Shown here piece by piece: positions 12,401-29,352 of a stretch of DNA of 32,000 nucleotides; the stretch's first letter is position 1, and each line of letters begins with the position of its first letter. The stretch comes from Bellilinea caldifistulae (GTDB lineage: Bacteria; Chloroflexota; Anaerolineae; Anaerolineales; Anaerolineaceae). The notes under the pieces are model-generated. The model did not search any database. It was not told the DNA's origin and saw only the letters and a program-made list of their open reading frames with translations. The stretch lies in NCBI RefSeq assembly GCF_001306055.1, contig NZ_LGHJ01000014.1, forward strand, positions 1 through 32,000. The letters run 5' to 3'. The translations under genes and the position numbers were made by a program.

Positions 12401-12444
12401 TGCAAATTCATGATGATGGTTTGGAAATCGAGCGGTTCAGACAT
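9439..12444 (-). CDS. glyQS: Glycine--tRNA ligase, fused alpha (GlyQ) and beta (GlyS) subunits
   Basis: The N-terminal ~290 aa are GlyQ ([71 protein letters not shown]). A ~28-aa Ser/Pro/Ala linker follows. GlyS starts at [13 protein letters not shown] chose ATG 12444 as the start because GGAG lies 5 nt upstream. The track start at 12450 is a GTG two codons earlier. Confidence 0.95.
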
Positions 12445-12479
12445 GCGCACTCCACAAAACGGGTTGAGATTGCCAACCG

Positions 12480-12510
12480 ATTATACTACGGATGAGAATT
12501 GATTTGTCAG
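12480..12510 (-). promoter_or_regulatory. Candidate glyQS promoter (CTGACA-19-TATAAT)
   Basis: On the minus strand, TATAAT is at 12485-12480 and CTGACA at 12510-12505, with a 19-nt spacer, which is long. The predicted 5' UTR is about 30 nt and contains the GGAG SD. The -35 overlaps, on the opposite strand, the -35 of the divergent regulator promoter. Confidence 0.4.
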
Positions 12511-12532
12511 CAGCCGAAAATTGCACTACAAT
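12504..12532 (+). promoter_or_regulatory. Candidate sigma-70-type promoter TTGTCA-17-TACAAT for the STAND/SARP regulator
   Basis: TTGTCA is at 12504-12509 and TACAAT at 12527-12532, with a 17-nt spacer. ATG 12543 lies 10 nt after the -10, so any leader would be about 3-4 nt, which is effectively leaderless. Confidence 0.45.
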
Positions 12533-12542
12533 CGAAGATGCT

Positions 12543-15500
12543 ATGGCATTTCGAGATCTGGTCATCCAAAGCCAGTTGATCCCGCCGCTGCCGCGCAAAG
12601 CCATACTCCCCCGTCCCCGGATTCGTTCGTTGCTGCAACGCGCCCTGCAGCATCCCTTGACCTTGCTGTTGGCCGGTACGGGTTACGGAAAGTCCACCGC
12701 CTTGCTCGATTTGAGCCAGGAAGGCCGGCGCATCTTCTGGTACACCGTCAACGAGCCGGAGCGTGATCCACTGTTGTTTCTGGTTCATCTGATCAATGCC
12801 TTTGCTCAGCAAAATGAAGAATACGGGCGAGATGCTTTGCGCTACCTGGAAGAACATAACGGCCGGGCGGTGCCTTCGGCATTGACGCCGCTTTTGAACG
12901 CTTTGACTGCCCACCTGTTGGAAGATGGCGTGCTGGTGATGGATGATTATCACTGGGTGCACGACGTGCCGGAAATTGCTGCGCTGGTACGTCATCTGAT
13001 TCAATACCGTCCACCGCGCTTGCAGGTGGTCATCGCAACCCGGACAATGCCGGATAATCTGGACTTGAACCGCTGGCGGGTCAAGGGTGAATTGAGTGTG
13101 GTGACGCATAGCGATCTGGCATTTACAGCCGAAGAAATTGAAGCCCTTTTTCGCGAGGGATATGGCTTTCCGATTACCTCTCAGCAGGCTGCCCGCCTTG
13201 CACAAGAAACCGAGGGGTGGGCGCTGGTGCTGCAAATGATCTGGCAAAGTGTCCAGCGTCGGCCTTCCGCTTCGTTGGATCAGGTGCTGGAAAATTTGCC
13301 GGAAACTCTGGAAAGTTTGTTTGACTATCTGGCGCCGGAGGTGCTTGCCCGCCAGCCGCAGGACATTCAGCAATTTTTGATAGACACCTCCATTTTGCGT
13401 CAGCTGGAAGGCGAGATTTGCGATGGATTATTAGGTATCGAAGATAGTGCAGCCCTGTTGCGGCGGTTGTACGAGAGCGGAATGTTCATTGAGGCGGCCG
13501 GCGGACAGGTTTACCGTTACCAGCGGCTTTTTCAGGAGTTTTTACAAACCCGCCTGAATCAGCAGCCTGCCGAAGCACGCGCTTTACACCTGCGCGCCGC
13601 AACCCTCTACCTGGATCGAAAGCGCTCCGAAGAAGCCATCTACCACCTGCTCAAAGCCGGTGAGGCTGCTTTTGCGGCGGATGTCATTGAACAGATCGGC
13701 ATGGGGTTGATTCGCAGCGGACGGCTGGAAAGTTTGCAATACTACCTCAGCCGTTTGCCAGCCGAGTTGAAGGCCGAGCGGCCGTTGCTTCAATTGCTGC
13801 TGGGAGACCTTCATCGTTTGCGTGCCGATTTTGAACCTTCATTGCTGCATTTCCGCGCTGCCGAGCAACTCTACCGTCAGCAGGGGGATCGCTGGGGCTG
13901 CAGCCGGGCATTGCGCGGCCAGGCTCAGGTCTTTCTGGATACTATCCGTCCGTTACAAGCCGATGCCCTGCTGGAAGAAGCCCTACGTTTGCTGGAACCG
14001 CAAGAGCACCGCGAAGAAGTTGCTGCCTTGCTGGATCAACTGGCGGAGAACAAACTGAACCTCGGTAAGCCGGATGAGGCCCGCGTGCTGCATCGAGAAG
14101 CTCAGTTGCTGCGTGCCGAGACCAGCCCGAACGATGTGTATCTGGAAGGGCGCGCTCTGCTGCGTACCGGCCGACTGATCGAGGCCCGTCAGTTGATGTT
14201 GAATCAGGCTGCTGAGGAAAGACGCCATGAGGCACAGCGCGCCCAACGGTTTCACCGTGAAACGCTGCTGCTGCTTTCGTTGATTTGTTCAATGCTGGGC
14301 AGCGCAGAAGAAGCCGAGCGTTACGCCCGCGAGGGAATTGCCATCGGCAAGCGTTTGCAATCCGAGTTTGTTGAAGCCGTAGGTTTGATCCGCCTGGGAC
14401 ATGCCTTGCAGGTGGGCCATGTTCAGCCGTGGGGTGAGCCCTCTCTTCGGAAAGCCATTGATTTATATCGGCGAGCCATTGAATTAATGCACCCTTTCAA
14501 AGTGGCGCGGGTGGGCGTGGAACCGCTGTGGGGTCTCACCCGGGGGTTGGGTTACGCAGGAGAGCTGGCAGAAGCCGAGGATTGTGCCCGCCGAGCGCTG
14601 GCGATTTCTGAAAAGGCCGGCGATGAGTGGATTGGCAATCTGGTGCGCACCAGTATGGGGGCTTCGTTCGCGCTTGACGGGCAATTTCGTACGGCAAGGG
14701 AGTGGCTGGAGCGCGCCGCGCAGGGTTTTGAGTCGGTGCGTGACCGCTTTGGTTGGACGGCTGCCAGGTTGTGGCTGGCGTGGATGGACTGGTACGGCGA
14801 GGAGCGCGGCCGGGCTTTGATGGAATTGGAGCAGATTTTAGAGCGACAGGAAGGGCCGGATGCTGCGGTGCTGTTTACCAGCCCAACCCTGCTGGGCTGG
14901 AAGGACGAACAGACCCTTGTCCCCATTCTGCTGGCAGCCCGTCGTCAGGGAATTGGCGGAGAATACCTGCTTAAAGTGCTGAACAATTTCTCGATAGAAG
15001 GTGACTATCACCCGGCTTACACGCTGTATGTGCGAACGCTGAGTGATTTTGGGGTGTGGCGCGGGGATCAAAAAGTCCACTCCGCTGAGTGGCAGCGCGA
15101 AAAAGCCCGCCAGTTGTTTCAATTGTTGATTACCAACCGCCAGCGCTGGCTGCTGCGCGATCAGATTGTTGACCTGCTCTGGCCGGAACTGGATGGTGAA
15201 TCGGCGGTGCGGGACTTCAAAGTGGCCCTGAATGCGCTTAACCGCACCATTGAGCCGCAGCGTCCCCGCGAGACAGCTCCTTTCTTTGTGCGACGCCAGG
15301 AGAATATGTACGGAATCAATCCGCAGGCAAAGGTGGTTGTGGATGCAGATGAATTTGAAAGACTGGCTTCCGAAAGTCTGAGTGATGAAGAAAGTCTGCG
15401 TCGGGCGCTTGACCTTTATCAGAATGATTATTTGCACGAATGTTGTTACGAGGATTGGAGCAGTATTGAACGCGAGCGGCTGCGTCAGGTTTACTTCACC

Positions 15501-15755
15501 GCCGTCCAGCGGCTGGGGGAGTTACTGGGCAGTCAGGGCCGTTGGGATGAGGTGATTGCGGTTTGCAATGCCGCTCTGCTACGCGATCGCACCTGGGAGC
15601 CGGCTTACCGCTTGATCATGCAGGCCTACGCTGCCAAAGGCAATCAGGCGCAGGTCATTCAGACCTATCAGCGCTGCTGGAAGATCCTTTGGGACGAAGT
15701 GGGGGTTGAACCATCTCTGGAAACGCGTGATTTGTTGCGCCGCCTGACCGCCTGA
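12543..15755 (+). CDS. Large transcriptional regulator: MalT/LAL-type STAND ATPase N-terminus, helical/TPR-like middle, C-terminal SARP-type winged helix + BTAD domain
   Basis: The N-terminus is LIPPLPRKAILPRPRIRSLL, like the MalT N-terminus. Walker A is LLLAGTGYGKST and Walker B is GVLVMDDYHWV. A long helical repeat region follows. The C-terminal 245 aa (from nt 15018) have an OmpR/SARP-type wHTH (REKARQLFQLLITNRQRWLLRDQIVDLLWPELDGESAVRDFKVALNALNRTIEP). They also have a BTAD domain (LDLYQNDYL...WEPAYRLIMQAYAAKGNQAQVIQTYQRCWKILWDEVGVEPSLETRDLLRRL). The start is moved from 12492 to ATG 12543 because 12492-12542 holds the promoter elements. Confidence 0.85.
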   Translation: MAFRDLVIQSQLIPPLPRKAILPRPRIRSLLQRALQHPLTLLLAGTGYGKSTALLDLSQEGRRIFWYTVNEPERDPLLFLVHLINAFAQQNEEYGRDALRYLEEHNGRAVPSALTPLLNALTAHLLEDGVLVMDDYHWVHDVPEIAALVRHLIQYRPPRLQVVIATRTMPDNLDLNRWRVKGELSVVTHSDLAFTAEEIEALFREGYGFPITSQQAARLAQETEGWALVLQMIWQSVQRRPSASLDQVLENLPETLESLFDYLAPEVLARQPQDIQQFLIDTSILRQLEGEICDGLLGIEDSAALLRRLYESGMFIEAAGGQVYRYQRLFQEFLQTRLNQQPAEARALHLRAATLYLDRKRSEEAIYHLLKAGEAAFAADVIEQIGMGLIRSGRLESLQYYLSRLPAELKAERPLLQLLLGDLHRLRADFEPSLLHFRAAEQLYRQQGDRWGCSRALRGQAQVFLDTIRPLQADALLEEALRLLEPQEHREEVAALLDQLAENKLNLGKPDEARVLHREAQLLRAETSPNDVYLEGRALLRTGRLIEARQLMLNQAAEERRHEAQRAQRFHRETLLLLSLICSMLGSAEEAERYAREGIAIGKRLQSEFVEAVGLIRLGHALQVGHVQPWGEPSLRKAIDLYRRAIELMHPFKVARVGVEPLWGLTRGLGYAGELAEAEDCARRALAISEKAGDEWIGNLVRTSMGASFALDGQFRTAREWLERAAQGFESVRDRFGWTAARLWLAWMDWYGEERGRALMELEQILERQEGPDAAVLFTSPTLLGWKDEQTLVPILLAARRQGIGGEYLLKVLNNFSIEGDYHPAYTLYVRTLSDFGVWRGDQKVHSAEWQREKARQLFQLLITNRQRWLLRDQIVDLLWPELDGESAVRDFKVALNALNRTIEPQRPRETAPFFVRRQENMYGINPQAKVVVDADEFERLASESLSDEESLRRALDLYQNDYLHECCYEDWSSIERERLRQVYFTAVQRLGELLGSQGRWDEVIAVCNAALLRDRTWEPAYRLIMQAYAAKGNQAQVIQTYQRCWKILWDEVGVEPSLETRDLLRRLTA

Positions 15756-15764
15756 GCCAGGTTG

Positions 15765-15782
15765 TGTAACCCTTTTGTAACC
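15765..15782 (+). promoter_or_regulatory. Two direct heptamer repeats TGTAACC-N4-TGTAACC (11-bp phasing); candidate SARP box
   Basis: TGTAACC occurs at 15765-15771 and again at 15776-15782. The second copy ends 9 nt before a -10-like TATCCT (15792-15797). The repeats sit 10 nt after the stop of the SARP-domain regulator and about 90 nt before the first operon gene. Confidence 0.45.
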
Positions 15783-15870
15783 ATTGCGCTGTATCCTATT
15801 CAACAGGGGGCGGTTAATTTACCCTGTCGGCTGGCAGGATTCCAACATCTTTTCAGGAGGCGAGGGAAAC

Positions 15871-16635
15871 ATGCGGTTAAAGGATAAGGTGTGTCTGATA
15901 ACGGGAGGCGCAGCCGGAATCGGGAAAGCCACAGCCCAGCGTTTTGCTGAGGAAGGGGCCATTGTGGTGATTTGCGATGTCAACCGTGAAGCCGGCGAAG
16001 CCCTGGTAAAGGAGCTTGGGGAACCAGCCTGCTTTTACGCGGTCAATGTCGCCGACCGGGCTGAGGTGCAGGCCTGGGTTGACGACGTGGTGCGTCGTTT
16101 TGGGCGGGTAGATGTGCTGGTCAACAATGCCGGTATCACCCGCGATGCGCTCTTCGTCAAGGTCAAAGACGGTGAACTGGTTAAGCAGATGGAAGAAAGC
16201 GCCTTTGATCAGGTGATTGACATCAACCTCAAAGGGGTCTTCAATTGCGCCCAGGCAGTTGCTCCGTTCATGATTCGGCAGGGCGGTGGCGTGATCCTCA
16301 ATGCCTCTTCGGTGGTGGGTCTGTACGGCAACGTCGGTCAGACCAATTATGTTGCCACCAAAGCCGGGGTGATTGGGATGACGAAGGTGTGGGCGCGGGA
16401 ATTGGGACGGTACAATATCCGTGTCAATGCGGTGGCACCCGGTTTCATTGCCACCGAAATGGTGCAAAAGATGCCCGAAGAGATCTTAGCCGGTATGAAA
16501 GCCAAGACCCCGCTTGGCCGGCTGGGAGATCCGCGCGATATTGCCAATGCCTATCTCTGGCTGGCCAGTGATGAGGCCAGTTTTGTGCATGGCGCCACCA
16601 TCAGTGTGGATGGCGGTATTGTGATGGGTACATAA
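15871..16635 (+). CDS. Short-chain dehydrogenase/reductase, FabG-like 3-oxoacyl/3-hydroxyacyl (CoA or ACP) oxidoreductase
   Basis: The cofactor-binding motif is TGGAAGIGKA, and NNAG is present. The catalytic Ser is in ASSVVG and the catalytic Tyr/Lys in YVATK. An SD-like AGGAGG is at 15856-15861. This is an internal ATG of ORF 15784..16635. Confidence 0.9.
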   Translation: MRLKDKVCLITGGAAGIGKATAQRFAEEGAIVVICDVNREAGEALVKELGEPACFYAVNVADRAEVQAWVDDVVRRFGRVDVLVNNAGITRDALFVKVKDGELVKQMEESAFDQVIDINLKGVFNCAQAVAPFMIRQGGGVILNASSVVGLYGNVGQTNYVATKAGVIGMTKVWARELGRYNIRVNAVAPGFIATEMVQKMPEEILAGMKAKTPLGRLGDPRDIANAYLWLASDEASFVHGATISVDGGIVMGT

Positions 16636-16673
16636 AGCCCATCCATTCTTTGAAAAGGAGGTTGAAAAAGGAT

Positions 16674-17660
16674 ATGTCTCGATTTGCTACCATCATTGGA
16701 ACGGGTCACTATCTGCCGCCAATTGAACGCCCTAACCGGGAAATGCGCGAGCGTTTCGGCGAAGTGATTGATAAGTTCGAAGCCTCGTCTGGCATTACCA
16801 CCCGCTGGTACGCCCCGGATGACTGGGTAACCTCGGATCTGGCGGTAGAAGCTGCGCGGGAGGCATTGAAAGACGCCGGCATCCAGGCCGAGGATCTGGA
16901 CATGATCATTCTGGGCACCGACAGCCCCGACTACATTACCCCGGCCACCTCGGTGGTCGTTCAGCACAAATTGGGGGCCGTCAAGGCCGGCACATTTGAT
17001 ATTGGATGTGCGTGTGCGTCGTTTCCTACCGGCCTGAACATCGCTGCCGGATTGCTGGCAACCTCTTACCAGATGAAATATGTGCTGGTGGTGGGTGCTT
17101 ATATGATGCACAAATTGTGCGACTGGCAAAATGATGTGATGTCCTTCTTCTACGGCGATGGGGCCGGTGCCGCGGTATTGACCTATTCGGATAAGCCGGG
17201 TTTCATCAGCTCAACCTTCTTTGCGGATGGTTCTTACCACAAACATTGGGGAATTTACTCCGGTGGCACCTACGAACCGGCAACGGTGGAAAGTGTGCAG
17301 GCCGGCCGAACGCAGGTGCGCTTCATCACTCCCTTCCCGCCGGAGGTCAATAACGAGGGCTGGCCGAAGCGGATGCGCGAACTGGCCGCCAACGGCAATT
17401 TTGACCTGCAGGATGTGGACATGGCGCTGTACACTCAGGTGCGCCTGAACAGCATCAAACTGGTGCAGGAAACCCTCGGTCTGCCGCTGGAAAAGACCCA
17501 CTGGATCATGGATAAATGGGGCTATACCGGTTCGGCTTGCATTCCAATGGTGTTTGATGACGCCCGTAAACAGGGCAAGATCAAATCCGGCGATCTGGTG
17601 ACCTTTGTCGGTTCGGGGGTGGGCTACAATCAGGCCGGTTCAGCCTTCATTATGCCCTGA
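16674..17660 (+). CDS. KAS III (FabH)-fold protein with a degenerate catalytic triad (Cys retained; His and Asn replaced)
   Basis: FabH-like blocks are DIGCACASF (Cys114), FYGDGAGAAVL and a C-terminal GSGVGYNQAGSAF. The HQAN block reads YTQVR (His to Thr254). The GNTSAAS block reads GYTGSAC (Asn to Tyr284). The SD AAGGAGG is at 16654-16660. ATG 16674 is preferred over TTG 16650. Confidence 0.85.
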   Translation: MSRFATIIGTGHYLPPIERPNREMRERFGEVIDKFEASSGITTRWYAPDDWVTSDLAVEAAREALKDAGIQAEDLDMIILGTDSPDYITPATSVVVQHKLGAVKAGTFDIGCACASFPTGLNIAAGLLATSYQMKYVLVVGAYMMHKLCDWQNDVMSFFYGDGAGAAVLTYSDKPGFISSTFFADGSYHKHWGIYSGGTYEPATVESVQAGRTQVRFITPFPPEVNNEGWPKRMRELAANGNFDLQDVDMALYTQVRLNSIKLVQETLGLPLEKTHWIMDKWGYTGSACIPMVFDDARKQGKIKSGDLVTFVGSGVGYNQAGSAFIMP

Positions 17661-17673
17661 TGGCAGGAGGAGT

Positions 17674-19038
17674 ATGAATCCCGCTGAAGTCTATAAAAGT
17701 AAATTGATCTCCATCCCCGAGGCGGTCAGCCTTGTTCAATCTCACCAGACGATTGGGGTGGCGATTGCTGCTTCGGAGCCGCCAGGATTGTTGAGCGAAT
17801 TGGGCAATCACAAGGATCGCCTGGAAGATGTGACGGTGTGGGTGTGCCTGCCCTTACGGGCGTATGAATATGCTACCAACCCGGAGATGGCTGGCCACTT
17901 CTTTGTGGAAAACTGGTTTTATGGCGCGCCGGATCGCAAAGTTCACCCGCAGGGGCGCATGTCTTACATCCCCAATAATCTGCACCGTGCCTCGACCGAT
18001 AAATTGCTTGCCAGTGGCGGCAAAGTCAACATCTTTTGGGGAACGGCTACCCCGCCTGACTCGCGCGGCTATCTTTCGCTTTCTCTGGGGCTGGTTATCG
18101 AAAAACAATTGATGGAAGCCGCCGATCTGGTCGTTTTGGAAATCAACGAAAACCTGCCGTATACCCTCGGCGATACGCAGGTGCACATTTCGGAAGTGGA
18201 TTATGTTGTAGAAAACCATGTGCCGTTGTTTGAACTGCCTCCTGCTCCGCCAAGCGAAGCCGAACAGGCGATTGGCGGTTATATTGCCGATTTGATTCAA
18301 GACGGTTCCACGCTACAACTGGGCATCGGCGGCATCCCCAATGCCATTACTCCCTTCCTGATGAACCGCCGGGATCTGGGCATTCATACCGAGATGTTTA
18401 CAGATGGCATGGTGGATTTGTACGAAGCCGGGGTGGTGACTAACCGCCGAAAAACGCTCTGGAAAGGCAAAATGGTGGGGGCATTTGCGCTGGGCACCCG
18501 CAAGCTGTATGACTTTGTGGATCGCAATCTGGGGGTGGAGTTTCAGCAGGGCAAAGTGACCAACGATCCGTTTGTGATTGGCCAGAACTACCGCATGATC
18601 AGTGTCAATACCGCCTTGCAGGTAGATTTGTTCGGACAGGTCTGCTCGCAAAGCATCGGTTATCGCCATTTCAGCGGAACGGGCGGACAACTGGACACGC
18701 ACCGCGGCGCACAGCTTTCCCCCGGTGGACGCGGAATCATTGCCCTGCGCTCCACAGCGCGGGATGGACAGATTTCGACGATTGTACCCATCCTCTCGGA
18801 AGGCGCCGAAGTGACTGTGCCCAGTCAGGATGTGGATACGATTGTGACCGAGTACGGGGTGGCCGAACTACGCGGGCGCTGTGTGCGCGATCGCATGGAA
18901 GCCCTGATACGGATTGCCCACCCCGACTTTCGCGAGTGGCTGCGCGAGGAAGCCCACCGGCTGGGGATTGTCCCCCGCCTGGTTGTGCCGGGGGTGCGCC
19001 TTGCTGAACAAGAAGCCAGACCATCATCCGATTCATAA
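17674..19038 (+). CDS. Family I CoA-transferase of the acetyl-CoA hydrolase / 4-hydroxybutyrate CoA-transferase type
   Basis: The length is 454 aa. GIHTEMFTDGMVDL holds the catalytic Glu context, and FSGTGGQLD is the GGQxD motif. The SD AGGAGG sits in the 13-nt spacer after the preceding stop. Confidence 0.9.
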   Translation: MNPAEVYKSKLISIPEAVSLVQSHQTIGVAIAASEPPGLLSELGNHKDRLEDVTVWVCLPLRAYEYATNPEMAGHFFVENWFYGAPDRKVHPQGRMSYIPNNLHRASTDKLLASGGKVNIFWGTATPPDSRGYLSLSLGLVIEKQLMEAADLVVLEINENLPYTLGDTQVHISEVDYVVENHVPLFELPPAPPSEAEQAIGGYIADLIQDGSTLQLGIGGIPNAITPFLMNRRDLGIHTEMFTDGMVDLYEAGVVTNRRKTLWKGKMVGAFALGTRKLYDFVDRNLGVEFQQGKVTNDPFVIGQNYRMISVNTALQVDLFGQVCSQSIGYRHFSGTGGQLDTHRGAQLSPGGRGIIALRSTARDGQISTIVPILSEGAEVTVPSQDVDTIVTEYGVAELRGRCVRDRMEALIRIAHPDFREWLREEAHRLGIVPRLVVPGVRLAEQEARPSSDS

Positions 19039-19051
19039 ACAGGAGGAAATC

Positions 19052-20116
19052 ATGAACATGCCTCAACCTCTACCGGGTGTAACGTCGCAGATGATTCAAA
19101 CCCCGCGCCTGAACCTGCACGTTTTGACAAGCGGAGATGCGGCCGGTGTACCGGTGATCTTTCTGCATGGGAATTTTTCGGCTGCTCTTTACTGGGAGGA
19201 GACCATGCTGGCTCTGCCGGCCGGTTTTCGGGCAATTGCTCCGGATTTGCGCGGTTACGGCTGGACAGAAGATGTGCTGATCAATTCGACCCGCGGTTAC
19301 CGGGACTGGTGCGATGACCTCGCGGCTTTGATGGATGTGCTGGGTGTGGAAAAGGCGCATCTGGTGGGCTGGTCAATGGGTGCGGGCATCATTTACCGGT
19401 TTATCGGTGATTTTCCTGCCCGCGTACTGAGCGCAACCCTCATTTGTCCGGTTTCACCGTACGGTTTTGGCGGCACCAAGGGAGTAGAAGGTACGCCGTT
19501 GTTTGAGGATCATGCCGGCTCCGGCGGTGGAGTGGTCAATCAGGAATTTGTCAAGCGCATTCAGGCACAAGACCGTTCCAGTGATGACCCCAACTCCCCA
19601 CGAAATATCATCAACGCCTTTTATTATGTGCCGCCCTTCCGCGCCGCACGGGAGGAGGAATTTCTGACCGCATCCTTGATGGAAAAAACCGGCCCAGACC
19701 GTTATCCGGGAGATTTCGTTCCCTCGCCCAACTGGCCGTTCGTGGCGCCAGGGGTGCACGGGCCGGTCAATTGCTGGTCATTGAAATATCTCAAGGCGGA
19801 TGTACCGGACCTGCTGGCTGCTCAGCCAAAACCGCCTGTGCTGTGGGTGCGTGGTAGCCACGACCTGATTGTTTCGGACACCTCGTTTTTCGATATTGCC
19901 AATCTAGGCAAACTGGGGTACGTACCCGGCTGGCCGGGTGATGAGGTGGCGCCACCTCAGCCCATGTTGCAGCAAACCCGCGCTGTTCTTGAAAAATACG
20001 CGGCTGCCGGGGGGGCCTATGAGGAGCATGTCATCGAAAATACCGCCCACAGCCCGCACATCGAAAAACCGGATGTGTTTAATGCATTGTTCCACGAATT
20101 CTTGAAGAAAGCCTGA
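19052..20116 (+). CDS. Alpha/beta-fold hydrolase (Ser-Asp-His)
   Basis: IFLHGNFSAALYWEE forms the oxyanion region. The nucleophile elbow is GWSMGAG. Candidate Asp and His are in RGSHDLIV and NTAHSPHIE. The SD AGGAGG sits in a 13-nt spacer. Confidence 0.85.
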   Translation: MNMPQPLPGVTSQMIQTPRLNLHVLTSGDAAGVPVIFLHGNFSAALYWEETMLALPAGFRAIAPDLRGYGWTEDVLINSTRGYRDWCDDLAALMDVLGVEKAHLVGWSMGAGIIYRFIGDFPARVLSATLICPVSPYGFGGTKGVEGTPLFEDHAGSGGGVVNQEFVKRIQAQDRSSDDPNSPRNIINAFYYVPPFRAAREEEFLTASLMEKTGPDRYPGDFVPSPNWPFVAPGVHGPVNCWSLKYLKADVPDLLAAQPKPPVLWVRGSHDLIVSDTSFFDIANLGKLGYVPGWPGDEVAPPQPMLQQTRAVLEKYAAAGGAYEEHVIENTAHSPHIEKPDVFNALFHEFLKKA

Positions 20117-20129
20117 AGGAGAAATTTTT

Positions 20130-21392
20130 ATGAGCCAACGGAAATTAGGGCGAGGTGTGGCCGTTGTGGGTGCCGGCATGAGCAAGTTCGGCTGTTACAA
20201 CGGCATGGCCACACGGGATATCTTTGTTGAGGCTTATCGCGAAATGCTGTCCTCGGTTGACCGGGGTTTTGATCCGCATGACATTGAAGCCGTTTACATC
20301 GGCAACTACTCCGGCGATCTGTTTGAGGGTCAGGCGCACATGGCTCCACTGATGACCGATTGGGTGGGGCTTGCTCCTCGACCGGCAACCCGGGTCGAGG
20401 ATGCCTGCGCCAGCGGATCGGCGGCTCTGCGGCAAGGGATGCTGGCGGTGGCTTCCGGTTTGTACGATATGGTGATGGTTGGCGGGGTGGAGAAGATGAG
20501 TGAGCTGCCCACCGAGCGGGTAACCGATACGCTGGCAACCGCCTCGGATGTGATTTATGAGGCGGCGGTTGGTTTTACCTTCCCGGCGTTATATGCAGCC
20601 ATGGCAACTGCTTACCTGCACGAATATGGGGCCGACCCGGAAGTTTTTTTGCAGGTGGGTTACAAGAACCATGAACATGGCGCTCTGAACCCCAAAGCCC
20701 AATTCGGGCAGCGTATTCAGGAAATCATGGAAGCGCGCAAAGCCAGTGCAGCCCGCAAAGGTCTGCCCATTCCGGAGTGGAAAGATGAGTTTGAGTTTTT
20801 ACACGATCCGCGCGCCAATCCTTATATTGCCTGGCCGCTGCGGTTATACGACTGCTCACCAATTTCGGATGGGGCTGCAGTGGTCTTGCTGGTAAGTGAG
20901 GATCTTGCCCGCCGGTTCAGCGACGTACCGCTTTACATCATCGGCAGCGGGCAAGCCAGCGATGCCGCTACCCACGATCGGTCAACCCTGACCTCATTGC
21001 CGGCCGCCCGCCGGGCCGCCCGGCAGGCTTATGAGATGGCCAGAATCACCCCGCAGGATGTGGATGCGGTGGAAGTGCATGACTGCTTCACGATTGCGGA
21101 AATCATCGCCAGCGAGGATCTGGGCTTTTTTGCCCCCGGTGAGGGCTGGAAGGCAGCCGAGGACGGGGTGACTTCGTTGAAGGGAAATCGTCCGATCAAC
21201 TCTTCCGGTGGATTGAAATCCAAGGGTCATCCGGTCGGGGCTTCGGGTGTGGGGCAGGTAGTGGAGATCTGGCATCAATTGCGCGGCGAAGCGGGTGAGC
21301 GGCAGATTCCCGGCAGCCCCGCCATTGGTTTAACCCACAATGTCGGCGGCACCGGCCAGACCTGTGTGGTGAACATCTTTGAACGGAGATGA
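20130..21392 (+). CDS. SCP-x / archaeal-type thiolase (acetyl-CoA C-acyltransferase family, DUF35-partnered type)
   Basis: The N-terminus is VAVVGAGMSKFG. The nucleophile context is RVEDACASGSAAL (Cys93, nt 20406-20408). The C-terminal blocks are GGLKSKGHPVGASG and THNVGGTG. The SD AGGAG sits in a 13-nt spacer. Confidence 0.9.
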   Translation: MSQRKLGRGVAVVGAGMSKFGCYNGMATRDIFVEAYREMLSSVDRGFDPHDIEAVYIGNYSGDLFEGQAHMAPLMTDWVGLAPRPATRVEDACASGSAALRQGMLAVASGLYDMVMVGGVEKMSELPTERVTDTLATASDVIYEAAVGFTFPALYAAMATAYLHEYGADPEVFLQVGYKNHEHGALNPKAQFGQRIQEIMEARKASAARKGLPIPEWKDEFEFLHDPRANPYIAWPLRLYDCSPISDGAAVVLLVSEDLARRFSDVPLYIIGSGQASDAATHDRSTLTSLPAARRAARQAYEMARITPQDVDAVEVHDCFTIAEIIASEDLGFFAPGEGWKAAEDGVTSLKGNRPINSSGGLKSKGHPVGASGVGQVVEIWHQLRGEAGERQIPGSPAIGLTHNVGGTGQTCVVNIFERR

Positions 21393-21396
21393 GTGG

Positions 21397-21816
21397 ATGA
21401 GCGAAAACGGAGTGTATACCCATCAATTTTCTGAACATCTGGCGCAGCAGCATTTGACCGGTTCGCGGTGTAAAAAATGCGGGAGGCGGTTTTTCCCGCC
21501 GCGCATTTGGTGCCCGGATTGTCAGCAAAACGATCTGGAAGCCAGCGAATTTTCCGGAAGGGGCAAACTGGCTGCATTTACGGTGGTGTACGTTGCCCCA
21601 ACAGCCATGCTGGCTGCCGGTTATGACCGCAAAAATCCCTATTGTGTGGGGGTGGTAGAGTTAGAAGAAGGGGAACGCATCCCTGCCCAGATATTCGGTG
21701 TGGATGTTCATCACCCGGAAACGATCAAAATAGGGGCTCCGCTTAAGGCGGTTTTTGTGGAACGCGGTGATGGAGAAGGAAAAAAAGTCGTGTTAGGTTT
21801 TGAGGCGTTGGAGTGA
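21397..21816 (+). CDS. DUF35 family protein (N-terminal Zn ribbon + OB fold), thiolase-associated
   Basis: CKKCGRRFFPPRIWCPDCQ is a four-Cys ribbon, followed by an OB-fold-like GKLAAFTVVY...VGVVELEEGERIPAQI. ATG 21397 is 4 nt after the thiolase stop, with GGAG 8 nt upstream. Confidence 0.85.
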   Translation: MSENGVYTHQFSEHLAQQHLTGSRCKKCGRRFFPPRIWCPDCQQNDLEASEFSGRGKLAAFTVVYVAPTAMLAAGYDRKNPYCVGVVELEEGERIPAQIFGVDVHHPETIKIGAPLKAVFVERGDGEGKKVVLGFEALE

Positions 21817-22323
21817 GTGACTCTCGCTGTTCTGCATCATCTTCAAAGGCAGCCAATGGAAACTGACTTGCCGGATCCATCCAATCGCCGTCATCTTCAA
21901 CCGGAGTGGAGCGTGGGAAAGCGCGCCGCGTTGGTCAAGACAATTCAGCCGGCCGATCTGGAAAATTATGCCCGCCTGATGCGAGCAGATCGCGAGACAA
22001 TCGAGAAGGTGGAACACTCTGAGAGTGATCAAGAAGAGCGCACCGCAGTGCCCACCATGTTCCTCGGCGGATTAATCGGCGCAGCCATCCAGCAATATTT
22101 TTGTGAATCCGGTTCAATGTGCCTGAATCAGTATCTCGAATTCATCGCACCAGCGTACACTGGTGATACTGTGACGGCCGTCCTGGAGGTTGATCACGTG
22201 CAGACTGACCGTCCCATCCTTAGGTTGAAAACAGCCTGTACCAATCAAAACGGGCAAGCGTTGGTTACCGGTCAGGCTGTCATTCTCATGCCACAAGGAG
22301 GTGAGCCGCGATCGAAAAGTTAA
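21817..22323 (+). CDS. MaoC-like (R-hydratase-type) hotdog-fold protein lacking the canonical Asp/His dyad
   Basis: It aligns by eye along its length with PhaJ-type hydratases (VGKRAALVKTIQPADLENYA...; C-terminal GDTVTAVLEVDHVQTDRPILRLKTACTNQNGQALVTGQAVILMP). The hydratase motif region reads LMRADRETI instead of S-x-D-x-N-P-x-H. GTG 21817 abuts the DUF35 stop. ATG 21856 is an alternative start. Confidence 0.7.
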   Translation: MTLAVLHHLQRQPMETDLPDPSNRRHLQPEWSVGKRAALVKTIQPADLENYARLMRADRETIEKVEHSESDQEERTAVPTMFLGGLIGAAIQQYFCESGSMCLNQYLEFIAPAYTGDTVTAVLEVDHVQTDRPILRLKTACTNQNGQALVTGQAVILMPQGGEPRSKS

Positions 22324-22401: not shown

Positions 22402-23784
22402 ATGAAAAGGTTGTTGACCATTTTGACTGTGTTGATCCTGGCTTCTTTGGTGCTGGGCGCCTGCGTGCAGCAGGTTACACCCACCGCCGAGCCAACCCAG
22501 CCGCCTGCCCCGACTCAGGCACCGCCCCCCACCCAGGCTCCGACCAAGGCTCCAGAACCGGTGCAAACCGAAGAACCAGTGGTGGAGCTCGGCCCGGTGC
22601 TGAAGATTGGGCAGATCGGCCAGCTTTCCGGTGCGCTGGCACTGTATGGTTTACAACAAACGCGCGGCTTTGAACTGGGGCTGGAATACGCCTCTGGCGG
22701 AAAGACAGATGAAGCCGGCCGCTATATCATTGCTAATCGTCCGGTGGAAGTGCTGGTGCGCGATGATGAAGGCAATCCCGAAAAAGCGGTACAACTGGCA
22801 CGCGAACTGATCGAAAAAGACGGTGTCGAGATCATTCAGGGACCCTCCAGCTCGGCTTCGGCAGCGGCGCTGACCACGGTTGCACTGGAAAACAAGATCA
22901 TCCTGATGGTTGACCCGGCTGCCTCGGCTTTCATTACCGGTCAGTACTTCAATCCATATGTCTTCCGCACCTCGCGAACCAACTACGATGATGTGCTGGT
23001 GATTGCCAAGTACCTGGTTGAGAATGTTGGTTCAAAATTTGCCCACATTGGCATTGATAACGCATTTGGACGCGGCTCCGGTGCGGCGCTGGCTTACGCG
23101 GTGGCGCAATACGGCGGCGAGGTGATTGCCGACATTTACGCTCCACTGGAAACCACCGACTTTACCCCCTACATCCAACAAGCGATGGATTCAGGTGCGG
23201 ACTGCCTGTTCCTGACCTGGGCTGGCACCGGCTATGTGACCCTCTTCCAGCAGTTAGGTGACCTCGGCGCATTGGATCAGATGCAGGTTGCTACCGGCTT
23301 TGGCGATAACGCCTCCTTTGCGGCAGTTTACGGTGCGGCGGTGGGGCAAATCGGGTTGAATGTCTACCACTACACCGCTGCCAATACCGAAATCAACAAG
23401 TGGCTGACCGAAAAGCACCTTGAAAAATACAACGAACCGCCCGATTTGTTCACGGCCGGCGGTATGGCTTCGGCACTGGCGCTGGCGGCTGCACTGGAAA
23501 AGACCGGCGGTGATGCTTCCGGCGATGCGATGATCCCGGCGCTGGAAGGCTTGAAATTTGAAGGCCCGAAAGGTACTTACTACATTCGGCCAGAAGATCA
23601 TGTCTGCCTGCAGCCGATGAACATCCTCAAACTGGTGGACATCAACCCGCCGCTGGATGACAAGGGCCGCCCGACCTATAAATTCTTCGAGACGGTTTAC
23701 GTGACCAAATACGATGAACTGGCAGTGCCCTGCACGCTGACCGGAGAGTACGAATCGCGCTGCGGTGACCTGCCGCGCCCGTAA
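22402..23784 (+). CDS. ABC transporter substrate-binding lipoprotein, LivK / family-4 (Peripla_BP_6-like)
   Basis: The signal peptide with lipobox is MKRLLTILTVLILASLVLGAC. A Pro/Thr/Ala/Gln linker follows (about nt 22474-22575). The type I periplasmic-binding fold is then seen (LKIGQIGQLSGALALYG...). The SD GAAGGAG lies upstream. Confidence 0.9.
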   Translation: MKRLLTILTVLILASLVLGACVQQVTPTAEPTQPPAPTQAPPPTQAPTKAPEPVQTEEPVVELGPVLKIGQIGQLSGALALYGLQQTRGFELGLEYASGGKTDEAGRYIIANRPVEVLVRDDEGNPEKAVQLARELIEKDGVEIIQGPSSSASAAALTTVALENKIILMVDPAASAFITGQYFNPYVFRTSRTNYDDVLVIAKYLVENVGSKFAHIGIDNAFGRGSGAALAYAVAQYGGEVIADIYAPLETTDFTPYIQQAMDSGADCLFLTWAGTGYVTLFQQLGDLGALDQMQVATGFGDNASFAAVYGAAVGQIGLNVYHYTAANTEINKWLTEKHLEKYNEPPDLFTAGGMASALALAAALEKTGGDASGDAMIPALEGLKFEGPKGTYYIRPEDHVCLQPMNILKLVDINPPLDDKGRPTYKFFETVYVTKYDELAVPCTLTGEYESRCGDLPRP

Positions 23785-23922: not shown

Positions 23923-24729
23923 ATGACCGTTGAAGGGGAGATCCTCCTTGAGGCCAGAAGTTTACGGAAAGAATTTGGCGGACTGGTCGCCGTGGATGAT
24001 GTCAACATCCAGATCCGCGAGCGTACCTTGCACTCGATCATTGGGCCGAACGGCGCCGGTAAAACCACGCTGTTTAATCTGCTTAGCGGGATGATGCGTC
24101 CCACCCGCGGGCAGGTATATTATCGCGGACGGGACATTACCAACCTGCCGCCGCATCGGATTGCCCATTTGGGAATTGGACGTTCTTTTCAAATTACCAA
24201 CATCTTCCCGAATCTGACTGTTTTGGAAAATATCCGGCTGGCAGCCCAGGCACTGGGCAAAGATAATTTCCGTTTGTTCCGTCCGGCGGGTAGTTTTCGG
24301 CAATATGAAGAAAAGGCTTATGCTGTCGTCAAGCGGGTTGGCTTGCAAGGACGTGAATTTGACCTTGCCCTCAACCTCCCCCATGGCGATAAACGCAAAC
24401 TGGAATTGGGCATTATGCTGGCAGGCGAGCCGCAATTGCTGCTGCTGGATGAACCCACCGCCGGTATGTCTTCTGAACAGGTGCCGGCTCTGCTGGAAAT
24501 CATTCATTCCATCATGGCGGATGGCGATAAAACCATTGTGCTGGTGGAACACCGTATGGACATGGTGATGAGTATTTCGGATCGGATCACCGTCATGCAT
24601 CAGGGACAGATTCTGGCAGAAGGCACGCCGCAGGAAATTGCCCGCAATCAAACTGTACAGAGCGCTTATCTGGGGGAATTGTACGGGGATTTGGCCGCTG
24701 ATCTGGAGGACAAAGATGGGCAACGATAA
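23923..24729 (+). CDS. ABC transporter ATP-binding protein, LivG-like
   Basis: Walker A is GPNGAGKTT. The signature region is PHGDKRKLELG. Walker B is LLLLDEPTAG. The Liv-type N-terminal block is LEARSLRKEFGGLVAVDDV. Confidence 0.9.
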   Translation: MTVEGEILLEARSLRKEFGGLVAVDDVNIQIRERTLHSIIGPNGAGKTTLFNLLSGMMRPTRGQVYYRGRDITNLPPHRIAHLGIGRSFQITNIFPNLTVLENIRLAAQALGKDNFRLFRPAGSFRQYEEKAYAVVKRVGLQGREFDLALNLPHGDKRKLELGIMLAGEPQLLLLDEPTAGMSSEQVPALLEIIHSIMADGDKTIVLVEHRMDMVMSISDRITVMHQGQILAEGTPQEIARNQTVQSAYLGELYGDLAADLEDKDGQR

Positions 24730-25447
24730 TATCCTCGAAGTTGAATCCATCCACACCTTCATCGGTCAGTTTCATATTTTGGAGGGGGTCTCTTTGCAGG
24801 TGCCGCGCAGCAGCATTACCGTTTTGCTGGGCCGCAACGGCGCCGGTAAGACGACCACGCTCAAATCCATTTTGGGCCTGACCCCGCCGAGACACGGCGT
24901 AGTACGTTTTGATGGGCAGGAGATTCAGGGCAAACCTGCTTACGAAATTGCTGCCATGGGAATCGGCTATGTGCCGGAGCATCGCGCTATCTTCCGCAAT
25001 TTGAGCGTTGCCGAAAACTTGAAGATCGCCGAGCGGAAAAAGGGCGATCTTGACCGGAAGGCCGACTTCATCTTCAGCCTGTTCCCCGACCTGAAACGCC
25101 TTTACCGCTTGCCGGGCAATCACCTTTCGGGCGGCCAGCAGCAAATGCTGGCGGTGGCGCGGGCACTGGTTGCCGATAATCAATTGCTGCTGATTGATGA
25201 ACCCAGTGAAGGGCTGGCACCGATCCTGATCGAACAAATGATGGAGACAATCCGTAATTTGAGCGCGACAACGACTGTACTGCTGGTGGAACAGAACTTT
25301 ATCATGGCCAGTCAGTTGGCAGAAAATTATTATATTCTGGACGATGGGAAAACCGTGCATCAGGGGAAGATGGCTGATCTGGTGCAGGACAAGGAATTAA
25401 TACACCGCATGTTGGGAACGGCCGTGCGCAGCGGAGGTGCGGGATGA
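24716..25447 (+). CDS. ABC transporter ATP-binding protein, LivF-like
   Basis: Walker A is GRNGAGKTT, the signature is LSGGQQQMLAVARAL and Walker B is LLLIDEPSEG. ATG 24716 overlaps the upstream stop by 14 nt. Confidence 0.9.
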   Translation: MGNDNILEVESIHTFIGQFHILEGVSLQVPRSSITVLLGRNGAGKTTTLKSILGLTPPRHGVVRFDGQEIQGKPAYEIAAMGIGYVPEHRAIFRNLSVAENLKIAERKKGDLDRKADFIFSLFPDLKRLYRLPGNHLSGGQQQMLAVARALVADNQLLLIDEPSEGLAPILIEQMMETIRNLSATTTVLLVEQNFIMASQLAENYYILDDGKTVHQGKMADLVQDKELIHRMLGTAVRSGGAG

Positions 25448-29197: not shown

Positions 29198-29352
29198 TCT
29201 AAATCGGGTATGATCGGTTTGAGTATATCCTGTTTTTCAGCGGAATGGAATTATTGACCCTTTAAACCCTTTTGTTCCAGAGCGTTTCAAACGGCGTGAA
29301 AGTTGCACCGCAGGCATTCACAGAAAAAATGGAAGCACACAAGGAAAGCGTG

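Follow-up and report, generated by a model that had tools for sequence, protein, structure and literature searches.

A putative CoA-dependent catabolic operon of Bellilinea caldifistulae encoding a KAS III-like protein with a replaced active-site pair

Thiolases that are paired with a DUF35 protein have been described in several settings, among them the complex that HMGS, ACAT and DUF35 form in archaea (PDB 6esq) and the PhlACB and MucABC systems. The motifs of acetoacetyl-CoA thiolase (ACAT) are CxS, HDxF and GHx; the histidine of HDxF is essential for thiolase activity in archaeal ACAT, PfACAT and BbsB, while the C-acetyltransferases PhlC and MucB no longer have it, and the catalytic tetrad of the archaeal HMGS is E82/C114/H238/N270 (PMC12960953). 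The synthase complex of Sulfolobus acidocaldarius combines KT/DUF35 with a strictly NADPH-dependent FabG-type reductase and a MaoC dehydratase, and DUF35 scaffolds the additional enzymes of this fatty acid synthase complex (bioRxiv 10.1101/2024.07.05.601840). In FabH, a ketoacyl-acyl carrier protein (ACP) synthase III (KAS III), Cys112 forms the acyl-enzyme, Cys112 and Gly306 supply the oxyanion hole with their backbone amides, and the enolate that arises from malonyl decarboxylation is stabilised by His244 and Asn274 (PMC10054515). Here we describe a block of seven genes from Bellilinea caldifistulae (Chloroflexota) which encodes a KAS III-like protein together with a thiolase/DUF35 pair. The block lies in a stretch of 32,000 nucleotides, called the window below (assembly GCF_001306055.1, contig NZ_LGHJ01000014.1, positions 1 to 32,000).

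It is quite probable that the locus is catabolic in a general sense. More specifically, and at what we put just short of an even chance, it may be a catabolic operon in which a regulator gene and a Liv-type importer accompany the seven genes for enzymes, and by which an imported short 3-hydroxy or 3-oxo acid, or its (oligo)ester or lactone, would be converted to acetyl-CoA via CoA thioesters. Related loci of Chloroflexota carry a Liv-type ABC importer and a CoA-transferase, and those of Acidobacteriota a TonB receptor under a TetR regulator and an AMP-forming ligase. Our strongest evidence that such a system would import and degrade a carboxylic acid is that the same enzymes are joined by transporters of two unrelated types and by two activation chemistries that are likewise unrelated. 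The pathway type would be one already known, beta-oxidation-like or ketone-body-like with a thiolase/DUF35 pair; what appears to be new is the clade of the KAS III-like protein.

The gene block and its KAS III-like protein

The seven genes, designated G1 to G7, are all located on the forward strand between positions 15871 and 22323 of the window. The first five spacers are 38, 13, 13, 13 and 4 nt long, and an AGGAG(G) box was found in each of the three 13-nt spacers (tggcAGGAGGagt, acAGGAGGaaatc and AGGAGaaattttt). After the coordinates had been checked, this packing agreed with an earlier note made from the sequence. Two details of that note were revised. It gave a gap of 0 nt between G6 and G7, which is obtained with a GTG start at 21817; with the ATG start at 21856, preferred by the public annotation (gene calls of GCA_001050215.2, contig DF967971.1) and by the ortholog alignment, the gap is 39 nt. 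It also placed the block at 15765-22323, of which the end is correct, whereas position 15765 is intergenic, between the stop of the upstream regulator (15755) and the start of G1 (15871). Because scans for consensus promoters and terminators gave nothing beyond chance, the operon structure is deduced from gene packing and synteny only. An Rfam scan of the window returned zero matches. A hairpin (GATGGGTACATAAAGCCCATC, 16623-16643) extends over the stop codon of G1 and into the spacer of 38 nt before G2; it is a terminator-like scan match in a region where the count of such matches is at chance level. The folds that had been assigned to the seven proteins were all recovered in Pfam, NCBIfam and PDB searches, the hotdog match of G7 being weak. 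As had been claimed, no gene for an ACP, a malonyl-transferase, a polyketide synthase, HMG-CoA reductase, an acyl-CoA dehydrogenase or an acyl-CoA ligase was detected among the open reading frames (ORFs) scanned in the window.

G2 (16674..17660, forward strand) is a KAS III-fold protein (Pfam ACP_syn_III and ACP_syn_III_C) of a group that we call the D-C-T-Y clade. It shares the fold and length of FabH/KAS III at 28-33% identity, and has the nucleophilic cysteine and the Gly-rich oxyanion loop in the same places. Alignments to FabH structures match Cys114 of G2 with FabH Cys112, while FabH H244-Q-A-N is replaced by Y-T254-Q-V-R and FabH G-N274-T-S by G-Y284-T-G-S. Further signature residues are Asp83, Gln255, Asn226 and Trp230. 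These replacements are fixed across the clade: among 93 full-length homologues (91 loci) from Chloroflexota, Acidobacteriota and Proteobacteria, D83, C114, Q255, Y284, N226 and W230 are invariant in all 93, and T254 is changed once, to Ser. Down to about 31% identity the family alignment has T-Q for H-Q, G-Y-T-G-S for G-N-T-S and an Asp in GTD(S/T)PD, whereas in the true FabHs of that alignment PHQAN and GNTS are retained and no acidic residue stands at the GTD(S/T)PD position. The clade thus differs from FabH by an invariant Thr/Tyr for His/Asn and by an invariant Asp gained.

Scores of G2 fall below every curated FabH cut-off (195 bits against a cut-off of 249 and 173 against 292 for the NCBIfam FabH models), and the score against HMGS is 61 bits. 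In the PDB the best matches are to FabH (up to 149 bits). PqsD scores 95 bits, OleA structures are matched over residues 25-142 only (69 bits), and HMGS reaches 47 bits; the 60 PDB matches listed do not include PhlA. An AF2 model of G2 (pLDDT 90.9) was compared with the PDB by Foldseek. Its top 50 matches are FabH, BioZ, PqsD and a priming ketosynthase (TM 0.86-0.90), with neither HMGS nor PhlA among them. Sequence and predicted structure place G2 in the lineage of FabH and outside that of HMGS/PhlA, and an HMGS- or PhlA-like assignment was rejected on both grounds. A housekeeping FabH was likewise rejected: the His/Asn pair is lost, the scores lie under the curated cut-offs and the context is catabolic, neither an ACP nor FabD being encoded in the window or in those related loci that were examined.

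Since the cysteine and the Gly-rich loop are kept and His/Asn are swapped, G2 appears to retain the acyl-loading half of the FabH mechanism, with the decarboxylation half replaced. The change of His/Asn to Thr/Tyr predicts that it is unable to decarboxylate a malonyl thioester. It should still be able to form an acyl-S-Cys114 intermediate from acyl-CoA. Asp83 may correspond to the HMGS base, as far as motif and numbering go. No characterised member of the D-C-T-Y clade was found in the PDB, NCBIfam or the searchable literature, and searches on the cluster, the KAS III clade and phloroglucinol or 3-hydroxybutyrate links did not find a paper that describes the family.

The D-C-T-Y gene is accompanied by another KAS III-like paralog, which is very divergent (22-25% identity with G2), in ten of the related loci, which we number with an L (L021, L035, L045, L051, L055, L061, L047, L049, L093 and L083). 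The two KAS III-like genes stand in tandem in L083, and the pairing of paralogs resembles heterodimeric KAS III-like pairs such as PqsBC.

Conserved neighbours and the proposed pathway

A pattern scan with one genome per GTDB species detected at least 597 relatives of G2. The best 80 comprise Chloroflexota (63-97% identity), Acidobacteriota (59-66%; Holophagae, Thermoanaerobaculia, Vicinamibacterales and Terriglobia) and two Oxalobacteraceae, the closest locus being that of a metagenome-assembled genome (MAG) labelled Bellilinea sp., with 97% identity for G2. Neighbours were mapped by tblastn and custom hidden Markov models (HMMs). The counts given here were taken from tblastn, because ORF calling on the GC-rich Acidobacteriota loci gave antisense shadow ORFs, and they refer to loci with enough flanking DNA (24 of Chloroflexota and 30 of Acidobacteriota).

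Three neighbours of the KAS gene are common to both phyla: a short-chain dehydrogenase/reductase (SDR; 24/24 loci in Chloroflexota and 27/30 in Acidobacteriota), a thiolase (22/24 and 23/30, the acidobacterial enzymes being of the SCP-x type and about 30% identical to G5) and a PcaD-like hydrolase of 270 aa (21/24 and 28/30). The acid-activating enzyme is exchanged, a CoA-transferase being found in 22/24 and 3/30 loci and an AMP-forming acyl-CoA ligase in 4/24 and 26/30. So are the uptake genes, with a Liv-type substrate-binding protein in 21/24 and 2/30, an ABC ATPase in 21/24 and 4/30, and a TonB-dependent receptor in 0/24 and 20/30, and the regulators, of MalT/BTAD type in 13/24 and 0/30 and of TetR type in 0/24 and 26/30. 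DUF35 (22/24), the G4-type hydrolase (14/24) and the hotdog protein (14/24) accompany the KAS gene in Chloroflexota and in 0/30 Acidobacteriota loci; a search of six-frame ORFs with a custom HMM found no DUF35 within 10 kb of the KAS gene in any Acidobacteriota locus. The acidobacterial locus L040, for example, reads TetR, TonB-dependent receptor, SDR, KAS, hydrolase, ligase, thiolase, two further hydrolases and a TPR protein. Among distant members of the clade, L084 has two MalT/BTAD regulators followed by KAS, ligase, hydrolase, SDR, ligase, hydrolase, substrate-binding protein and ABC genes, and L087 has a ligase-KAS pair beside genes for an acyl-CoA dehydrogenase and ETF. Three loci, L084, L089 and L091, have no thiolase.

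The recurrence of the gene block across loci confirms that it is more than a chance arrangement. The neighbour counts and the distant arrangements therefore point to an evolutionary core of KAS, SDR, acid-activating enzyme and hydrolases. An uptake system is usually attached, of the type that the cell envelope requires; the thiolase is usual, and DUF35 is specific to Chloroflexota. A conserved seven-gene neighbourhood, one of the checks proposed earlier, was thus found in part: SDR, CoA-transferase, thiolase and DUF35 are kept in Chloroflexota, and DUF35, G4 and the hotdog protein are missing in Acidobacteriota. The earlier proposal of a CoA-dependent module that cleaves C-C bonds of an imported organic acid gains support from the uptake systems in two phyla, the interchangeable activating enzyme and the predicted NAD(H)-type SDR.

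Two features of individual Chloroflexota loci were recorded. In 15/24 loci (for example L005, L008, L009, L011, L012 and L014; L010 at 12320-12628) the genes for CoA-transferase and thiolase have between them a conserved gene of about 105 aa, which matches DUF5640 and lipocalin-like models weakly; the window does not have it. In a 5.4-Mb genome (L002, 3906-7459) the cluster adjoins a prpB-prpC-prpD-like methylcitrate set (isocitrate-lyase/PEP-mutase, citrate-synthase and MmgE/PrpD domains) and an MFS transporter, which hints that propionyl-CoA may be a product there; the G4 ortholog of this genome was called as two pieces of 177 and 183 aa.

In the proposed pathway the operon would be inducible by its substrate, and G4 (19052..20116, forward strand) would open ester bonds. 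G4 is a 354-aa serine alpha/beta hydrolase with the motif GWS108MG and a large lid (Pfam Abhydrolase_1 and Abhydrolase_6). Its best NCBIfam match is the intracellular short-chain-length polyhydroxyalkanoate (PHA) depolymerase (77.5 bits, far under the cut-off), PcaD is matched with 48 bits, and judging by its distribution the protein appears to be an accessory member of the cluster. Most relatives also have the PcaD-like 270-aa hydrolase, a gene that was not found in the window. Among named proteins these conserved hydrolases come closest to PcaD (3-oxoadipate enol-lactonase), with scores of 84-149 bits where the cut-off is 256, and the C-C hydrolases HsaD and BphD are also in their match lists.

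The free acid would then be activated by G3 (17674..19038, forward strand) with acetyl-CoA as CoA donor. G3 is a family I CoA-transferase of the 4-hydroxybutyrate/butyryl-CoA:acetate type (Pfam AcetylCoA_hydro N- and C-terminal domains) with the catalytic Glu240 in HTEM, and it matches the solved 4-hydroxybutyrate CoA-transferases 9vag, 3eh7 and 3gk7 with 317-353 bits. In addition to the Chloroflexota loci, a CoA-transferase of this type adjoins the KAS gene in L091, L093 and L047.

Oxidation of the (R)-3-hydroxyacyl-CoA to the 3-oxoacyl-CoA is assigned to G1 (15871..16635, forward strand), a classical SDR with a FabG/PhaB-like fold (Pfam adh_short_C2, 4e-71). It barely passes the NCBIfam FabG model (296.5 bits, cut-off 296), and BdhA models are not among its 25 best NCBIfam matches. 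Asp36 stands at the end of beta-2 (VVICD36V), and the ICD36V and AWDV motifs are kept in cluster-linked orthologs of Chloroflexota and Acidobacteriota. By established SDR rules an Asp at this place indicates the use of NAD(H), as opposed to the NADPH of FabG. G1 is predicted to be an NAD(H)-type SDR and is proposed as a 3-hydroxyacyl(-CoA) dehydrogenase; its earlier description as FabG-type stands for the fold and not for the cofactor.

The 3-oxoacyl-CoA would be cleaved thiolytically by G5 with its partner G6. G5 (20130..21392, forward strand) is an SCP-x/archaeal ACAT-type thiolase (NCBIfam PRK06064, 455 bits, above the cut-off) with the full catalytic set C93-A-S, H317-D-C-F and G-H367-P, in which the previously named nucleophile Cys93 is confirmed. 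G6 (21397..21816, forward strand) starts 4 nt past G5 and is a DUF35 protein with a Zn ribbon (C25xxC28...C39xxC42) and an OB fold (Pfam zf-ChsH2 and OB_ChsH2_C). The best PDB matches of both are chains of the archaeal complex, namely the acetoacetyl-CoA thiolase 6esq_A for G5 (287 bits) and 6esq_E for G6 (77.6 bits), and DUF35 follows the thiolase in 30/30 loci that have it, all of them Chloroflexota. Because the HDxF histidine is kept, the two are best read as what looks like a genuine archaeal-type acetoacetyl-CoA thiolase/DUF35 pair and not a PhlC-like acyltransferase. The benzoylsuccinyl-CoA thiolase BbsAB and the steroid aldolase Ltp2-ChsH2 likewise combine an SCP-x-type thiolase fold with DUF35 in CoA-dependent catabolism, and the steroid system also has a MaoC-type partner. 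However, G5/G6 are much closer to the archaeal pair (BbsB 150 bits), Ltp2 lacks the nucleophilic Cys that G5 keeps, and no bbs-type or steroid-pathway genes are present at the locus. Relative to 6esq_A, G5 has an insertion of about 27 residues (residues ~203-229, EARKASAARKGLPIPEWKDEFEFLHDPRA...), around which the phmmer match is split in two. The thiolases of Acidobacteriota are about 390-400 aa long, compared with 420 aa for G5.

G7 (21856..22323, forward strand; alternative GTG start 21817) is a PhaJ/MaoC-like hotdog protein that is degenerate here. Its match to PhaJ (1iq6) is weak (50 bits) and it has zero Pfam matches. Alignments with 1iq6 and with the orthologs show that the hydratase Asp/His of PhaJ are missing: GDFNPxHxD is kept in the orthologs of L002, L006, L020, L024, L027 and L047 and lost in the window, L009-L014 and L031. 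An active MaoC hydratase was rejected for this genome, the catalytic Asp and His being replaced. G7 would be what is left of an (R)-specific hydratase, which some relatives have kept intact. G2, encoded by the gene that is conserved best in the whole system, is proposed to have one of two roles, either that of an acyl transacylase (ester to thioester or thioester to thioester, in either direction) or that of a non-decarboxylative (retro-)Claisen or aldol-type enzyme with Asp83 as base.

Our best guess at the substrate, held with some reserve, is (R)-3-hydroxybutyrate or other short 3-hydroxyalkanoates and their oligo-esters, i.e., breakdown products of polyhydroxybutyrate (PHB). The characterised members of the FabG/PhaB-like and PhaJ-like families are (R)-specific. 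These families, the short-chain CoA-transferase, the acetoacetyl-CoA-type thiolase, the weak likeness of the hydrolases to PHA depolymerase and PcaD, and the bdhA-scoAB context of Paucimonas make (R)-3-hydroxybutyrate and PHB oligomers the leading candidate. Paucimonas lemoignei is a classical PHB-degrading specialist. In its isolate genome (L089) the order is hydrolase, bdhA, hydrolase, a 210-aa protein, hydrolase and KAS, followed by scoB and scoA on the opposite strand and a LuxR-PAS regulator, so that the G2 ortholog sits between bdhA and scoAB; all three genes score above their cut-offs (bdhA 374 against 258 bits, scoB 325 against 244, scoA 266 against 128). Two related MAGs have the order bdhA-hydrolase-KAS with a G2 ortholog of about 61-62% identity. 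The locus also has the step logic of known 3-hydroxybutyrate or ketone-body use after PHB depolymerisation (BdhA, ScoAB or acetoacetyl-CoA synthetase, thiolase), that is, ester hydrolysis, CoA activation, oxidation of 3-hydroxy to 3-oxo and thiolysis to acetyl-CoA. It differs in that G1 is FabG-like and not BdhA, and probably acts on the CoA ester, G3 comes from a different CoA-transferase family, and the thiolase is of the archaeal type with DUF35.

Other proteobacterial contexts were also recorded. The KAS gene is accompanied by a G3-type CoA-transferase in Proteobacteria too, where a Liv-type ABC importer may or may not be present: a Xanthobacteraceae contig (L091) has the importer, KAS and CoA-transferase, and another contig (L093) has Crp, KAS, CoA-transferase and a second KAS on the opposite strand. 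No DUF35 was called in the proteobacterial loci examined. The G2 orthologs of Oxalobacteraceae are flanked by conserved proteins without Pfam or NCBIfam match, of about 210 aa upstream (L089 8160-8792; L079 8102-8731) and of 182 and 290 aa downstream in L079 (11072-12482), which could be further pathway components.

Several points weigh against this pathway. All of its steps are deduced from homology and synteny, including the NAD(H) preference predicted for G1. The link to 3-hydroxybutyrate comes from three closely related Oxalobacteraceae loci, and the remaining proteobacterial contexts are either uninformative, as in Aquisalimonas, where informative neighbours of the KAS gene are absent, or different from all others, as in Alkalilimnicola ehrlichii (L092 170-4334), where the D-C-T-Y KAS gene directly follows E2 and E3 of a 2-oxoacid (pyruvate/acetoin-type) dehydrogenase complex. 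To our knowledge, 3-hydroxybutyrate catabolism needs no KAS III-like enzyme, which leaves the role of the central G2 unexplained. All hydrolase matches to PHA depolymerase and PcaD models are far under the curated cut-offs, a very small acid would not usually be taken up through a TonB-dependent receptor, and the methylcitrate-cycle neighbours in L002 hint at an odd-chain or branched substrate.

Alternative readings of the locus

The locus might instead serve the catabolism of a ring-cleavage product or lactone. A hydrolase would open an enol-lactone or cyclic beta-diketone, the resulting acid would be CoA-activated and oxidised by the SDR, and two thiolytic steps would follow, one by G2 and one by G5/G6. 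Models for such a route are the lower beta-ketoadipate pathway and the Brune-Schink CoA-dependent route of phloroglucinol degradation. Hydrolase, CoA-transferase and thiolase would act in sequence as in PcaD-PcaIJ-PcaF, the nearest named relative of the relatives' 270-aa hydrolases is PcaD (149 bits at best), with HsaD and BphD also matched, and a pair of thiolase-superfamily enzymes is conserved in both phyla. Holophagae, a class that includes phloroglucinol fermenters, commonly have the cluster, and relatives of the substrate-binding protein (4ey3, 4f06 and 4evs) are presumably aromatic-acid binding proteins of Rhodopseudomonas palustris. However, the CoA-transferase and thiolase families differ from those of the beta-ketoadipate pathway, in which the SDR and the KAS III-like protein have no counterpart, and none of the Pca equivalogs is reached: G3 reaches 23 bits with PcaJ and G5 46 bits with PcaF, under the cut-offs like the match of G4 to PcaD. 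The PcaD match of the conserved hydrolases is itself well under its cut-off and the window has no such hydrolase. The loci lack a ring reductase, cyclohydrolase, dioxygenase or other aromatic-pathway genes, and the Paucimonas context points to 3-hydroxybutyrate and acetoacetate. We regard this reading as unlikely; the phloroglucinol or cyclic-diketone substrate that had been suggested earlier is possible, but it has less in its favour than a substrate of the 3-hydroxybutyrate type.

A second alternative is a tripartite complex in which DUF35 would scaffold the KAS III-like G2 onto the thiolase, either pulling an unfavourable Claisen step or moving an acyl group onto or off a beta-dicarbonyl acceptor. 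This was the core of the earlier note, which had compared the three proteins with the archaeal and PhlACB systems. As in those systems and in MucABC, a third thiolase-superfamily gene is present in the same operon; the chains closest to G5 and G6 are A and E of 6esq, and G5 keeps the motifs of active ACAT. G2 keeps Cys114 and has Asp83 in GTD(S/T) where, by motif and numbering, HMGS has its catalytic Glu (tetrad of PMC12960953). DUF35 is a known scaffold of further enzymes in the Sulfolobus complex, and the three genes occur together in 22/24 Chloroflexota loci. Yet the lineage of G2 is that of FabH and not of HMGS or PhlA (D-C-T-Y in place of E-C-H-N), and G5 keeps the HDxF histidine, the mark of true thiolases that PhlC and MucB have lost. 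Two genes separate G2 from G5-G6, its neighbours being those for the SDR and the CoA-transferase, and neither mevalonate nor polyketide genes accompany the locus. The same invariant G2 active site is found in other phyla without DUF35, as shown by the Acidobacteriota and by the proteobacterial loci examined, and at L084, L089 and L091 without the thiolase. When the conservation of the KAS gene with the thiolase-DUF35 pair was checked, the association held in Chloroflexota, yet the constant neighbours of the KAS gene were the SDR, the acid-activating enzyme and the PcaD-like hydrolases. The triad comparison of the earlier note is thus unsupported, because G2 is of FabH lineage and DUF35 is confined to Chloroflexota loci. 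The idea retains some plausibility within Chloroflexota only and fails on lineage and co-conservation; overall we consider it quite improbable.

The locus has also been compared with ACP-independent elongation or reverse beta-oxidation, in which it would be a bacterial counterpart of the Sulfolobus complex with G2 as an extra priming or condensing enzyme. Four archaeal components do have counterparts that are encoded together here (thiolase, DUF35, FabG-like SDR and MaoC-like hotdog protein), and all would act on CoA esters. Nevertheless, the NAD-type Asp of G1 contrasts with the strict NADPH dependence of the archaeal reductase, the hotdog protein has lost its catalytic Asp/His here and its family was not found in the Acidobacteriota loci, and G2 is predicted to be unable to use malonyl units. 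No gene for an MDR- or SDR-type enoyl reductase was found in the window cluster, and an enoyl-CoA reductase is absent from all loci. Since importers, hydrolases and acid-activating enzymes are tied to the cluster, the direction would be degradative, and the elongation route, which had been named before as an alternative, is very unlikely.

Least probable of all, and hardly to be expected, is an OleABCD/beta-lactone or PqsD-type biosynthesis, with a signalling compound or something lipid-like as its product: L084 and the loci of Acidobacteriota do carry the exact Ole-type Pfam set (KAS III-like, SDR, AMP-binding, alpha/beta hydrolases) and G2 is weakly similar to OleA and PqsD, but the OleA match is partial, G2 is closer to FabH and lacks the His/Asn pair that OleA keeps, G1 is a classical FabG-like SDR whereas OleD is an extended SDR, the window has no AMP-binding gene, the ligase, being interchangeable with a CoA-transferase, would form thioesters and not beta-lactones, and the genes are conserved in company with uptake systems and with regulators of the TetR or MalT type.

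Surroundings and implications

The position of the block between a large regulator and a Liv-type importer, as described earlier, was recovered with Pfam and NCBIfam, and it is conserved in Chloroflexota loci. The regulator (12492..15755, forward strand) has a MalT-like STAND NTPase, TPR repeats and a C-terminal BTAD domain (Pfam BTAD and TPR; 260 bits to the N-terminal half of NCBIfam MalT); its ortholog stands upstream of the cluster in the 13 Chloroflexota loci counted above. The five-gene Liv-type ABC importer starts 78 nt past G7 with the substrate-binding protein (Peripla_BP_6; 22402..23784, forward strand; Pfam 7e-68), which is kept downstream in 21/24 Chloroflexota loci and whose nearest structures are the uncharacterised Liv-type binding proteins 3nnd and 3n0x (188 bits). 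It continues on the forward strand with two ATPases (23923-24729 and 24716-25447; Pfam ABC_tran) and two permeases (25444-26922 and 26926-28047; Pfam BPD_transp_2), as in the public gene calls. Directly past the permease genes, on the opposite strand, lies an alpha/beta hydrolase of 361 aa with a weak ABHD18-like match (28112-29197), followed by a BNR/sortilin-repeat protein (29272-31257, forward strand). Among the housekeeping neighbours three unusual fusions were observed, all on the reverse strand: a single-chain glycyl-tRNA synthetase alpha+beta (1003 aa, 9439-12450), a PlsY-DegV protein (492 aa, 1295-2773) and a receiver-dCache-HAMP-adenylate/guanylate cyclase (744 aa, 3143-5377).

It is possible, though still doubtful, that the D-C-T-Y proteins are a new catalytic class in the thiolase superfamily, with a FabH fold and another acyl-S-Cys chemistry, and that a catabolic pathway so far unrecognised has as its core these proteins, an acid-activating enzyme and a FabG-like dehydrogenase dependent on NAD. 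Such a class may carry out a CoA-dependent 'thiolytic' cleavage of 3-hydroxyalkanoate oligo-esters or lactones, in which the ester bond would be saved as a thioester, or a non-decarboxylative retro-Claisen or aldol reaction with Asp83 as base. The pathway would span Chloroflexota, Acidobacteriota and Proteobacteria, with at least about 600 species representatives.

If this is true, a very common gene is labelled 'ketoacyl-ACP synthase III' in databases though it is not a FabH, and the D-C-T-Y gene, with 60-65% identity between phyla and an invariant alternative active site, would mark an undescribed catabolic pathway. With G2 the thiolase superfamily would gain a new type of reaction, and the locus would be a bacterial example of an archaeal-type acetoacetyl-CoA thiolase/DUF35 pair in a degradative setting. 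Anaerolineae, Acidobacteriota and Oxalobacteraceae are abundant in digesters, sediments and soils, and carbon turnover and the degradation of bioplastics would therefore be affected if these groups had a dedicated route for carbon derived from 3-hydroxyalkanoates or PHB, or for some related lactone or ester.

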